A stretch of DNA of 64,000 bases from Eledone cirrhosa (Eukaryota): assembly GCA_964016885.1 (NCBI GenBank), contig OZ024742.1:159092001-159156000 (forward strand), read 5' to 3'. The notes beneath the pieces are model-generated. The model did no database searches, was not told where the DNA came from, and worked only from the letters and a program-made list of their open reading frames with translations. Positions 3,297 through 48,410 of this stretch are shown here, piece after piece. The first letter of the stretch is position 1. Every line of letters starts with the position of its first letter. The position numbers and the translations under genes are program-made.

Positions 3297-3835
3297 AAAA
3301 ACAAATAACGAAACAAAATTAAATTTCGCTTCGTTTGTAACTCACTTTTGTATGACTGACGCTTAAACAATTAAGTTAAAAATGTACATCCACATATGTA
3401 TACTGAAATACTAGTATGCATATGAATACACACACGTATACATATGTAGATGTACCGAGTTTTTCACTGGTCACTTTACTGTGAGTGTCCAGCTATTCTG
3501 TATGTAAACACACAGACAAACCGGTTTTTAGAGTCATACTGGTTTTTGAGGAAACACCTTTCCTCTATTCTCCAGAAAGCCAGACAAGGAATATTGAACT
3601 AGTTTCGATGTTGTTACATCTCATCAGCAATATTTACCTATCTTCCGGCCTTTCTAGAGAATCGTAAAAGCACATATCGTTATATGCTTTTTCTATGAAA
3701 ATTAGTAGTGGGCAGACTAATTTGCATAAAGTGACCAGTGAAAAACTCGGTACATCTACATATGTATACGTGTGTGTATTCATATGCATACTAGTATTTC
3801 AGTATACATATGTGGATGTACATTTTTAACTTAAT
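3297..3835 (-). mobile_element. ORF-less HHR-bearing module (family A; Penelope pLTR/retrozyme-like) with an inverted 5'-truncated copy
   Basis: Homologous to 5071-5392 and 47204-48410 (shared ctcact..tgacgcttaaa, agga..ctagtttc..tcatcagca, gcag.ctaatttgcata). Perfect 109-bp inverted repeat 3370-3478/3727-3835. Both ends run into (TA)n. Confidence 0.75.
3590..3634 (-). ncRNA. Minimal type I hammerhead ribozyme (intact core, GUU site)
   Basis: Minus strand reads AAUAUUG-CUGAUGA-GAUGU(AACA)ACAUC-GAAA-CUAG-UU^CAAUAUU: 7-bp stem I, 5-bp stem II, palindromic ACUAGU stem III. Confidence 0.88.
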
Positions 3836-5070
3836 CATATATATATATATACATATATATATATATACATATATATATATATACATATATATATATATAT
3901 ACATATATATATATATATATATATACATATATATATATATATACATATATATATACATATATATACATATATATATATATATACATATATATACATATAT
4001 ATACATATATATATATACATATATATACATATATATACATATATATATATATATACATATATATACATATATATATATATATACATATATATATATACAC
4101 ATATATATATATACACATATATATATATATACACATATATATATATACACATATATATATACATATATATATATACATATATATATATACATATATATAT
4201 ATATACATATATATATATACATATATATATATACATATATATATATATACATATATATATATACATATATATATATGTATATATATGTATATATATATAT
4301 ATATATATACACATATATATATACATATATATATATACACATATATATATATATATATATATACATATATATATATATACATATATATATATATATATAT
4401 ACATATATATATATATACATATATATATATATATATATACATATATATATATATACATATATATATATATATACATATATATACATATATATATATATAT
4501 ATATATACATATATATACATATATATATATATACACATATATACATATATATATATACACACATATACATATATATATATACACACATATATATATATAC
4601 ATATACACACATATATATATATACATATATATATATACATATATATATATACATATATATATATACACATATATATATACACATATATATATATACATAT
4701 ATATATACACATATATATATACACATATATATATATACATATATATATATATACATATATATATATACATATATATATATACATATACATATATATATAC
4801 ATATATATATATATACATATACATATATATATATATATACATATATATATATACATATACATATATATATACATATATATATATATACATATACATATAT
4901 ATATATATACATATACATATATATATATATATACATATACATATATATATATATATACATATACATATATATATATATATATACATATATATATATATAT
5001 ATACATATATACATATATACATATATATATATACATATATACATATATATATATACATATATATATATAT
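3836..5070. repeat. Compound (TA)n/(TACA) microsatellite
   Basis: TA alternation with CA interruptions. Confidence 0.95.
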
Positions 5071-5392
5071 GTAAGTATGTATGTATACGTACATACATAT
5101 ATGTATACAGACGTACAGTAGCATGCATATATATACATATATATATATATATACATATATATACACATATGCATACAGGTACACATACATATATGCACGC
5201 ATCAGTTTAGCCGACGTTTATTATAACGCCTGCTTTGTTCGTTTGTTTGTCAACAAATCGAACAGCCTGAATTTATGCCATACGGTGTTAAGGCAACCAC
5301 GTCACCTTTTTGTTCAACACTGACACAGGAACGATGTACTAGTTTCAAGCTTGTTAGCTATCATCAGCACCGTTTACCCATCTGCCAGATAG
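5071..5392 (-). mobile_element. HHR-bearing module, family A (second copy)
   Basis: Clearly similar to 47717-47985 (gtaagtatgtatgtatacgtacatacatatatgtatacagacgtacagtag...ggcaaccacgtcacc...cactgacacaggaacgatgtactagtttcaagctt). AATAAA on the minus strand near 5217-5222. Confidence 0.78.
5330..5374 (-). ncRNA. Minimal type I hammerhead ribozyme (intact core, GUA site)
   Basis: AACGGUG-CUGAUGA-UAGCUAACAAGCUU-GAAA-CUAG-UA^CAUCGUU: 7-bp stem I with one G.U pair, AGCU/AGCU stem II. Confidence 0.88.
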
Positions 5393-6314
5393 GTGCCTAC
5401 TGACTGTAGGTTTCACTTTGTACTTAGGTAAGGCGGGTCTTCTGTATTACTGTGTAGCGCCAAAGATCTCGGTCCAGTGACATTGTCTTGGAGAGGTGTA
5501 AGTGTGTGAGGTCGGAATTTATCAAGTCGTCCCAGGTTTTTCTCGGTCTGCCTACTCTGTGGCTACCGTCTATTTTTATCGCCCTGCACTTTTTTATACA
5601 GCTGTCGTCTTTCATGCGCATCACGTGACCATACCAACGTAGTCTTCTCTCGAGTAAACAACATCTGATCCCTCTTATTCCTAATTTCTACCTTAGTTCA
5701 TTTATGCTTTGCCGTTCACGTATATTACTATTACACATCTAACGGAGTATGCAAGCTTCGTTCCTCTCCAGTCTGCATATATCCTCTGCACACAATGCCC
5801 AAGTCTCACTGCCATGTAACATTGCTGTTCGTATGCAGGCAGCATACAGCCTGCCTTTCATTTTTACAAAGAACCCTTTAGTGGCCAATAGTGGTATAAG
5901 CTCTCTGAACTTTTTCCATCCCGTTCTGACTCTAGCTACTGTACTTTCAGAGCACCTTCCACCACTGCTGATTTTGTCACCCAGGTAACGGAAGGTGTCC
6001 ACTATTTCTATAGAACCATCTGTGCAATGGAATGAGCTAGTATTCTGTGGGCACTTGCTGCTACTTATTGCATCTGAGCACCGGCCACATATAAAATCTA
6101 TATTCTTAGTTAGCTTACCTGTGATCCCACTACATCTTTTATACACCCATACTTTGCATTTGGGACATAAAATGGAGTTTCTGCCTACTCCTTTCCTACA
6201 CACTGAGCATGGCCATTTCCCAGATGGGACCAGTGCCCTATTTTCCTTCCTACAAACTAGAACTTTAGTCTTAGACAGGTTAATTTTAAAGCCTTTTGAT
6301 TCTAGGCCATGCAT
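5393..6314 (-). mobile_element. RTE-clade LINE fragment (C-terminal RT; decayed)
   Basis: ORFs 5739-6374 and 5424-5624: LESKG..WPCSVC..FRYLG..LHGSETW..RRLRWYGHV..GRPRKTW. Confidence 0.9.
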
Positions 6315-46965: not shown

Positions 46966-47045
46966 GACATACATACATACATACATACATACATACATAC
47001 ATACATACATACATACATACATACATACATACATACATACATACA
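46966..47045. repeat. (TACA)n microsatellite
   Basis: About 20 perfect units. Confidence 0.95.
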
Positions 47046-47203
47046 CACACAGGCCGGCGTTGGTGTTTGATGAGGTTGAAATGCTGTGGTATTTAATCTC
47101 CCTAGGTAATAAAATCTGGAGTCAACATTCTCTCCTAACCAAAAAAACATAAATCATGTCAACATCCTTACACACTTAAATATAAATGCATATATATAGA
47201 GAA

Positions 47204-48410
47204 AAGAATGAAATTTCTCACTCTTAGTACGGCTGATACTTAAATGTAAGTATGTATACGTACTTACATATATGCATACAAACGTACAGTAGTATATATA
47301 TATATATATACATGAACACATATATATATATGTACGTATGGATTCACCGAACATTTATTATAATGCTCGGTGTGTTTGTAAACAAACATCCCGAATTAAG
47401 CCATACAGTGTCTAGCAACCATCGTTGCTCATTTGTTCAACACTGACAATGGTATGCCTTCATCAGACAAAATACAATATATAATTTAATTTGGTATCCC
47501 TGAAATATGTATAATGAAATAAATATGGTTTTATAAATATAGTTTCCATTTATTAATATCGTATATCTACTCCAAATACTTGTCGAGTGCTTTATATCAG
47601 TTATAAAAATATTTACTTGTTGTATCCCAACAATTTTAAATAGAACTTTTGCATATATATATATATATATATATATATATATATATATATATATATATAT
47701 ATATATATATGTGTGTGTAAGTATGTATGTATACGTACATACATATATGTATACAGACGTACAGTAGTATGTATATATATATACACACATATATATATAT
47801 GCACGTATCGGTTTACCGAACATTTATTATAATGCTCGGTTTGTTTGTTTGTAAACAAACAGCCCGAATTACGCCGTACAGGTTGGGCAACCACGTCACC
47901 CTTTTGTTCCACACTGACACAGGAACGATGTACTAGTTTCAAGCTTATTAGCTATCGTCAGCATCGTACACCTTCCTGCCAGATGGTTGAACATCTGAAA
48001 GTATATACTTTCCTTATGCATATTAACGGCTGAGCAGCCTAATTTGCATATCGAGTGAGTTAGTCGGCCGGGCGTACCGAAACGATAAATGGAAAAGAAT
48101 GAAATGAAATTTAATTTCTCACTCTTAGTACGGCTGATACTTAAATGTAAGTATGTACATACATATATGTATACAGACGTACAGTATTTCCTTTGTCAGT
48201 GTTGAACAAAAGGGCAAAGATGGTTGCCGAACACTGTACGGCTTAATTCGGGCTATTTGTTTACAAACAAACCAAACATTATAATAAATGTTCGGTAAAC
48301 CCATACGTATATATATATATATGTGTGCATGTATGTATATATATATACATACTACTGTACGTCTGTATGCATATATGTATGTACGTATACATACGTACAT
48401 ATATATACAT
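47204..48410 (-). mobile_element. Family A HHR-module cluster: truncated copy (47204-47449), ~1.1 tandem units of 430 bp (47717-48186), inverted copy (48188-48410)
   Basis: gtaagtatgta recurs at 47246, 47717 and 48147. 48188-48410 is the reverse complement of ~47717-47925. Internal and flanking TA tracts. Confidence 0.8.
47925..47967 (-). ncRNA. Minimal type I hammerhead ribozyme (intact core, GUA site)
   Basis: ACGAUG-CUGACGA-UAGCUAAUAAGCUU-GAAA-CUAG-UA^CAUCGU: 6-bp Watson-Crick stem I. Confidence 0.88.

Follow-up and report, generated by a model that had tools for sequence, protein, structure and literature searches.

How is a short repeat that contains no open reading frame (ORF), and that lies in pieces of differing length and orientation, copied and inserted in an octopod genome? 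The question is raised by a 64,000-nt stretch of Eledone cirrhosa DNA (GenBank assembly GCA_964016885.1, contig OZ024742.1, forward-strand positions 159,092,001 to 159,156,000), which was analysed as a whole, is called the window here, and supplies the coordinates used below. The repeat has a 430-nt unit, and three of its copies contain a hammerhead ribozyme motif. On the sequence features described below, this ORF-less, high-copy repeat with its conserved type I hammerhead is probably a non-long-terminal-repeat (non-LTR) retrozyme, whose RNA would cleave itself and be reverse-transcribed into TA tracts by the enzyme of a Penelope-like element (PLE). An earlier note on the window had proposed a non-autonomous hammerhead retroelement with a structure under selection and with junctions at TA tracts. 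That proposal, with the TA-tract junctions limited to the 3' side, is supported by the ribozyme motif, its covariation, a closed unit without an ORF and the junctions themselves.

The ribozyme provides the firmest starting point. A relaxed hammerhead descriptor run over the window returns three loci, all on the minus strand, in copies A, B and C (Table 1), and nothing else; these are the positions and stems that had been reported before. In 200 block-wise dinucleotide shuffles the mean was 0.015 loci and the maximum one, so that none reached three. All three copies have the core CUGANGA / GAAA / NUH and three helices with helix I open, and the cleavage nucleotide H17 belongs to GUU in A and to GUA in B and C. 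Hammerheads B and C share a U-U mismatch, unmentioned before, at the base of helix II, and helix I of A is prolonged past a bulge, out to 3579-3649. The label "minimal" given to these motifs has to be withdrawn, as helix I is 6-7 bp long, helix II 4-5 bp and the palindromic helix III 2 bp, the proportions described for canonical type I hammerheads (helix I about 6 bp, helix II about 4 bp and a 1-2-bp helix III with a palindromic loop; PMC4209133). As predicted structures, A, B and C are thus of the canonical type I form of animal non-LTR retrozymes and not of the minimal form of PLE pseudo-LTRs, cleavage itself being only predicted. For copy B, the whole-window Rfam scan gives no hammerhead among the matches listed (150 of 291). 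Rfam microRNA matches in the window were rejected as artefacts of TA repeats. A metagenome scan for the hammerhead core pattern gave 117 loci, none of which has the hammerhead helices, and no BLAST match to the element.

The stems of the three copies also covary. When a 17-pair structure is laid on their alignment, 48 of 51 cells (94.1%) are paired and five pairs are altered on both sides; 2 of 500 shuffles score as high, and slid partners are 33-48% paired. Between A and B, 12 of the 24 positions of helices I and II differ and B still keeps 11 of its 12 pairs, a result equalled by 211 of 200,000 random trials. These figures bear out the earlier claim of covarying stems, and on these alignments compensatory changes keep the ribozyme across the 30-35% divergence between copies.

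Six pieces of the family lie in three clusters in the window (Table 1). Three of them have no ribozyme (D, E and the piece at 3727-3835) and were absent from the earlier note; two of these three are inverted. Over the 3' core, B to E are 77-90% alike and A is 65-70% like the others; C and E agree at 90% of 120 aligned columns. A model built from three copies and searched over the window finds only A to E and two weak matches (E 0.067 and 0.76). B and C end at one and the same unit position, and the inverted piece at 3727-3835 lacks the final 73 nt of A's 3' end. The pieces A to E differ in their start and end points and are therefore circularly permuted. A tandem array had been placed at 47717-48186; its 430-nt period stands, and its extent shrinks to one full unit plus 41 nt, that is, 1.1 units with one ribozyme. 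Near D, a CUGAUGA heptamer at 47460-47468 (minus strand) lies about 10 nt upstream of the apparent 5' end without the remainder of a hammerhead, and is either the remnant of a deleted ribozyme or a chance occurrence.

Table 1. Pieces of the 430-nt repeat in the window, with their ribozyme motifs and predicted RNA structures.
Feature	Position	Strand	Description
Copy A	3297..3731	-	divergent subfamily, about 0.9 unit; octamer hairpin, hammerhead, H1-H4, tail hairpin in order; 3' end at long TA tract
Inverted 5'-truncated piece	3727..3835	+	109/109 bases complementary to 3370-3478; joined 5'-to-5' to A; 3' end at TA tract
Copy B	5074..5390	-	5'-truncated, tail-less; 3' end within TA tract; 5' end fused to 3'-truncated LINE end at 5391
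Copy D	47200..47456	-	from just 3' of the hammerhead position through H1-H4 into tail hairpin; no intact hammerhead
Copy C	47717..48146	-	a complete 430-nt unit with 38% G+C, comprising tail, tail hairpin, octamer hairpin, hammerhead and H1-H4; TG/TA tract at its 3' end
Partial-tandem start	48147..48187	-	41 nt, end of previous unit; 430-nt period; 10-nt indel
Copy E	48188..48415	+	inverted, 5'-truncated; joined 5'-to-5' to C; begins 5 nt 3' of predicted cut site
Hammerhead A	3590..3634	-	helix I 7 bp, helix II 5 bp, palindromic helix III; predicted cut after 3597
Hammerhead B	5330..5374	-	helix I 7 bp including one G-U; helix II U-U + 4 bp; predicted cut after 5337
Hammerhead C	47925..47967	-	helix I 6 bp; helix II U-U + 4 bp; predicted cut after 47931
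Octamer ATGCAAAT in A	3720..3727	-	5' arm of predicted hairpin 3694-3728
Octamer ATGCAAAT in C	48042..48049	-	5' arm of predicted hairpin 48015-48050
H4	3384..3455	-	internal TA/TG-rich tract of A; predicted 20-bp hairpin
Long-range helix in A	3350..3539	-	7 bp, arms 3533-3539 and 3350-3356; closes predicted H2-H3-H4 domain; two pairs differ on both sides from C
Long-range helix in D	arms 47400-47406 and 47227-47233	-	counterpart in D
Tail hairpin of A	3307..3335	-	13 pairs, at 3' end

The abundance and closure of the unit were read from four sequencing runs aligned to 47800-48190 at 80% likeness: X21, which consists of raw restriction-site-associated DNA (RAD) reads, and the contigs of X1 (possibly from the sample that the window came from), X5 (organism B) and X6 (organism C). 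X1, X5 and X6 are three of 20 runs listed as containing the repeat, and X21 has the species label of the best of these; no RNA run is among those listed, which has no bearing on expression. The stretch recruits 81,799 of 12,467,656 reads in X21 and 9,546 of 16,517,967, 4,185 of 17,641,350 and 56 of 6,943,267 contigs in X1, X5 and X6, respectively. All 28 bins, hammerhead included, are covered in each run; no single read or contig of the four runs spans the whole of 47800-48190. Contigs bridge 47987-48182, which links the part upstream of the hammerhead with the tail and the TA hairpin, and joints bridge 48186 to 47800/47803; the unit thus closes head-to-tail without an ORF. On the circularised unit the longest ATG frame has 92 codons, mostly across low-complexity DNA, and indels of 1 and 4 nt that break the frame occur often in the runs. 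The copy floor is about 3,000-6,700 (2.08 million / 31 / single-locus depth of 10-23), an order of magnitude only, contig depth being unsuited to a real count. This is a very abundant ORF-less family, present under two further organism labels.

The runs also hold natural variants of the ribozyme. Among the 40 variants listed, beyond which there are 113 more, the only one in the core is at N7 (47957), the free position. In helix I, position 1.3 (47928 A>C) varies widely, the change making up 30% of depth in X1, 50% of X21 plus-strand first mates, 85% in X6 and less than 0.1% in X5. In X1 and in X21 alike, T>G is counted at one place only, 47841. The summed depth of X5 and X6 on 47800-48190 has its peaks at the core of the hammerhead, at the octamer hairpin and at the tail, hinting that these are the conserved parts.

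The junctions are where the mode of insertion can be read. Long TA/TG tracts adjoin four of the six 3' ends (A, its inverted piece, B and C), compared with 11% of the window that lies in such tracts; three of the four lie in a single TA block, and the boundary is hard to place because the element itself has a TA-rich hairpin. D and E meet only short TA-like runs. None of the six 5' ends lies at a TA tract: four meet an inverted piece, one the 3'-truncated end of a long interspersed nuclear element (LINE), and one AT-rich unique DNA. The module had been described as always embedded in (TA)n, which is right for the 3' side at four of six ends, and wrong in its "always" and for the 5' side. The shared block at 1-5170 is an imperfect TA/TACA tract of about 4.5 kb that holds A, its inverted piece and B's 3' end, half of the six 3' ends. 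In the runs, the consensus of 55 X1 contigs with loose ends at 48155 leads into (TA)n where B and C end (median 12 letters, the TA part coming from a longer minority). Ten of the 15 joints listed change strand, at varied points, and four joints are 5'-to-5' like the window's two, since their short side equals the distance to 48108. The PLE insertion pattern described by Craig et al. (2021, PMC8557442), a partial tandem beside which lies an inverted 5'-truncated copy, with a tail on one side, is found in A with its inverted piece, in C with E and in the X21 joints. It is through this anatomy that the link to PLEs is strongest, because the inverted 5'-to-5' joins, the partial tandem and the one-sided tail all match the published pattern. 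Octopus Naiad PLEs (Naiad_Obim/Ovul/Omin) and Hydra-1_Obim are also described as having a (TA)n preference (PMC8557442).

One apparent junction was set aside. About 27,000 X21 reads leave the unit at 48107/48108 for mixed sequence (agreement 0.33-0.34), as if at a fixed 3' end with a 39-40-nt tail; we rejected this end as a restriction-site artefact. Positions 48108-48111 read AATT and all four molecule-end pile-ups (47867, 48041, 48044 and 48111) fall on AATT, so the reads are likely ligation chimeras, and two listed joints ending at 48107 were left out on the same grounds. Reduced-representation libraries are thus able to fake a fixed element terminus, here in X21 at AATT sites.

The same pieces might be solo pseudo-LTRs, the 3' ends of an autonomous PLE left after 5' truncation, with no separate non-autonomous element. 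PLE insertions are mostly 5'-truncated and take exactly such tandem and inverted forms (PMC8557442), PLE-like sequence occupies 6.83% of the O. vulgaris genome, in 190 families, according to a 2026 annotation (PMC13282606), and 906 more loose ends exist beyond the 24 listed. However, some 170 nt upstream of the hammerhead the unit gives way to its own 3' end (in C in the window, and in X1 and X5 contigs), and no ORF-like continuation occurs among the 24 loose ends listed. Moreover, the unit's canonical hammerhead has a helix III and lies 255-300 nt from the 3' end, whereas that of Hydra-1_Obim is different and lies about 30 nt from its end (PMC8557442). Hydra-1_Obim was itself rejected as the source of the unit, the hammerhead and the 3' end differing in a comparison by eye. 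We consider the solo pseudo-LTR explanation unlikely.

It seems more doubtful again that the retrozyme was mobilised by a LINE, of the RTE or CR1 type that fills the window, instead of a PLE. Fragments of LINEs bearing a reverse transcriptase (RT) are plentiful here, a LINE 3' region is fused to B's 5' end, and LINEs were left open as the mobiliser of metazoan retrozymes in PMC7229834. Yet the fusion joins a 3'-truncated LINE to the 5' end of B with 3-4 nt of microhomology and no shared 3' tail, the unit tail shows no likeness to the LINE copies by nhmmer or BLAST, and the permuted ends, one-sided tails and 5'-to-5' joins agree with the description of PLEs (PMC8557442).

Beyond the hammerhead, the unit is predicted to form a highly structured RNA. 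Outer helix I, H1, H2, H3 and a long-range 7-bp helix, which spans 166-176 nt in A and D, are kept despite altered letters, and TA-rich and tail hairpins can also be located; all of these helices were found by hand and eye, with no separate null. The C unit and A fold better than shuffles (z of -7.65 and -9.06, respectively, or -5.34 and -7.21 with the TA tract removed), and in both the hammerhead strand folds better than the opposite strand; four control stretches, on both strands, gave z from -1.97 to +1.95. In a monomer the 2-nt helix III loop would be unable to close, a fold with the core open comes at a cost of 1.5-4.3 kcal/mol, and duplex formation by the palindrome contributes -4.8. These modelled energies fit a dimer mechanism and are no proof of it.

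Two short motifs reported before are also present. The octamer upstream of the hammerhead occurs in both copies that span it, 85 (A) and 74 (C) nt from helix I. The small nuclear RNA (snRNA)-type promoter of newt satellite 2 includes an octamer; here, 12 identical letters in the octamer region of copies that are 70% alike are weak evidence for a promoter. The distances of the downstream A(A/G)TAAA from H17 are 117, 115 and 103 nt. We rejected it as a polyadenylation signal and read it as structure instead, because in B to E it falls within the loop and 3' arm of H3 and in A it is non-canonical.

We give slightly less credence still to a DNA-level repeat (a foldback like a miniature inverted-repeat transposable element, MITE, or a satellite spread by recombination) with the hammerhead as an inherited relic: although a perfect 109-bp inverted repeat frames A inside TA tracts, strong hairpins suit single-stranded DNA equally and one subfamily tolerates a helix I mismatch, the fixed terminal inverted repeats of a MITE are not found, because each locus (A, C/E and the run joints) has its inverted part in a different place and of a different length, the hammerhead strand folds better, with G-U pairs, and the ribozyme is held by compensatory changes across the copies' divergence.

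A PLE-mobilised retrozyme must also be weighed against several observations that count against it. The covariation comes from three copies, and every double change stems from one split, A versus B and C. The 47928 A>C change of helix I has no partner change at 5% or more among the variants listed; it marks a major uncompensated subfamily, and many copies must therefore have an A-G mismatch in helix I. In Rfam, which the earlier note had proposed as a check, A matches Hammerhead_HH9 (36.5 bits, E 5.7e-08) without reaching the gathering score of 52 bits, and C matches no hammerhead family even at E up to 5. The fold of B beats its shuffles only weakly (z -1.79), and in the minimum-energy fold of C helix I is mis-registered. 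None of the three hammerhead loci in the window has two hammerheads, 150-nt reads being too short to show such a locus, and in a preprint 8 of 9 Xenopus retrozyme dimers tested did not cleave (10.64898/2026.07.22.740005). Copies attached to an ORF for a PLE RT and GIY-YIG endonuclease had been suggested as something to look for; none was found attached or nearby among the 12 of the window's 90 long ORFs that were scanned. By eye, the 3' end of the unit is unlike that of Hydra-1_Obim, and C and E may record two events and not one, since E is only 90% like C.

With these points in view, we suggest how a PLE-mobilised retrozyme could give rise to the observed copies. Multimeric transcripts would arise from an internal or a neighbouring promoter and be cut at GUH by two hammerheads that pair via the palindromic helix III. 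The resulting 430-nt monomers, perhaps ligated into circles, would serve as template. A PLE reverse transcriptase/GIY-YIG endonuclease would nick (TA)n and begin synthesis close to the TA-rich hairpin or to the tail; copying on round the template would then yield permuted and more-than-unit copies (A at about 0.9 unit, C at 1.1 units), and a second, opposite priming would yield the inverted piece. The starts of D and E, which lie within about 5 nt of the cut, may reflect a cleaved RNA template, although n = 2 and joints in the runs also start elsewhere. As the partner, a Hydra or Neptune PLE appears likelier than a Naiad, because the cephalopod Naiads described in PMC8557442 are old remnants.

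A bolder version is more tentative. The family could be an octopod-wide circular RNA retroelement with its own snRNA-type promoter (the octamer), a hammerhead acting as a dimer, and a multi-helix domain read by a PLE RT, copied round the circle into TA tracts. If so, it would be the first retrozyme with a mobiliser named by its insertion scars, would have a promoter design in common with newt satellite 2, and would possibly be among the most abundant structured RNAs in octopus cells.

How much of this is new can be gauged from the literature. Our searches found no description of a cephalopod retrozyme, repeat libraries (Dfam, Repbase and that of O. vulgaris) being outside their scope. The text of PMC7229834 mentions no cephalopod, the word hammerhead is absent from the supplement of the O. 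vulgaris repeat annotation (PMC13282606), and passages of SINE papers gave nothing on the repeat. In the giant squid, 235 Rfam hammerhead loci were counted without context (PMC6962438). The retrozyme class is already known, including in a mollusc, and this repeat may already stand in a library under another label. The mobiliser of retrozymes in animals has so far been argued from co-occurrence and sequence likeness in the sources at hand (PMC7229834, 10.64898/2026.07.22.740005). Here a retrozyme-type unit bears the very signature of PLE insertion, and as the family is abundant and offers thousands of natural variants, the question becomes testable by junction counts in an octopod assembly. The repeat would also form a large octopod class that annotation would likely label "Penelope-like", "unknown" or simple repeat, and that may be abundant as RNA.

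The remainder of the window holds other repeats and two host exons. LINE fragments at 5391-6299, 14400-15407, 32190-33414, 33825-34767, 54904-55575 and 61533-63122 have an RT followed by a PHD-finger-like stretch (PF00628, found in 3 of the 12 ORFs scanned), and we take them to be RTE-like; the one beside B (5391-6299) is cut at its 3' end. A second LINE type at 6525-7787 (minus strand) has a 410-aa RT frame (RVT_1, E 5.2e-21). At 48790-48916, 370 nt from E, a 127-bp stretch that is 93% self-complementary forms a long G+C-rich hairpin and has no second copy in the window. Three separate minisatellite arrays with a 48-bp period occupy 30890-31514, 56991-57534 and 18636-18789, and there is a 32-bp array at 10130-10551. 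The host exons are of RBM42 at 59441-60337 (plus strand; best match Octopus sinensis at 72% identity, pointing to an octopod that is probably another species) and of a synaptobrevin/VAMP-like gene at 20925-21359 (minus strand).

Comparison with known systems places the family closest to the metazoan non-LTR retrozymes. Repeats of 170-400 nt with canonical type I hammerheads have been described as retrozymes with circular transcripts in coral, mussel and axolotl (Cervera and de la Pena, 2020, PMC7229834), and most of the features tested here are those of that class: a short ORF-less unit, head-to-tail organisation, many genomic copies and a highly self-paired predicted RNA. As described in PMC7229834, these retrozymes have one canonical type I hammerhead per unit, G+C below 45%, strong self-pairing and thousands of copies, as is likely here. 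The mussel units, at 350-390 bp, are near the present 430 nt, which lies slightly above the 170-400-nt range. The U-U that B and C have at the base of helix II recurs in axolotl HHR_Amex2, and the axolotl family with this mismatch cleaves as a dimer. The dispersed copies of the window, monomers or 1.1 units with inverted joins and TA-tract junctions, have traits that are not described in the available part of that account.

The minimal PLE hammerheads of Cervera and de la Pena (2014, PMC4209133) resemble A to C in type I fold, in the palindromic helix III region and in the proposed dimer mechanism. In contrast to A to C, whose proportions are canonical with no extra base, they are described as combining a long helix II with a short helix I, with one additional base following A9 and a helix III that is slight or absent. 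Newt satellite 2 (Coats et al., 1994, as cited in PMC2220036) is a hammerhead repeat with an internal snRNA-type promoter, which the octamer recalls; the octamer here also sits in a conserved predicted RNA hairpin.

With PLEs the family shares 5' truncation, partial tandems, adjacent inverted copies, one-sided tails and possibly a (TA)n preference (PMC8557442), A's tail being 73 nt compared with the 30-40 bp described there. Autonomous PLEs have an RT and GIY-YIG ORF between pseudo-LTRs, which was found at none of the family's loci among the 12 of 90 long ORFs scanned, and the unit closes without an ORF. The cephalopod Naiads of PMC8557442 lack canonical hammerheads, and two element motifs sought in its supplement gave no relevant match. 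A related proposal is that of the preprint by Li, Clavereau and Pollet (2026; 10.64898/2026.07.22.740005), according to which non-LTR retrozymes derive from PLEs and are non-autonomous. The relation proposed is the same and monomers are likewise dispersed genome-wide; the "active" class defined there needs two tandem hammerheads, which no locus here shows. Its 35 genomes are of 31 vertebrates, 3 insects and 1 coral, with no mollusc. The evidence described there is co-occurrence and pseudo-LTR similarity, whereas here it is the anatomy of the insertions.

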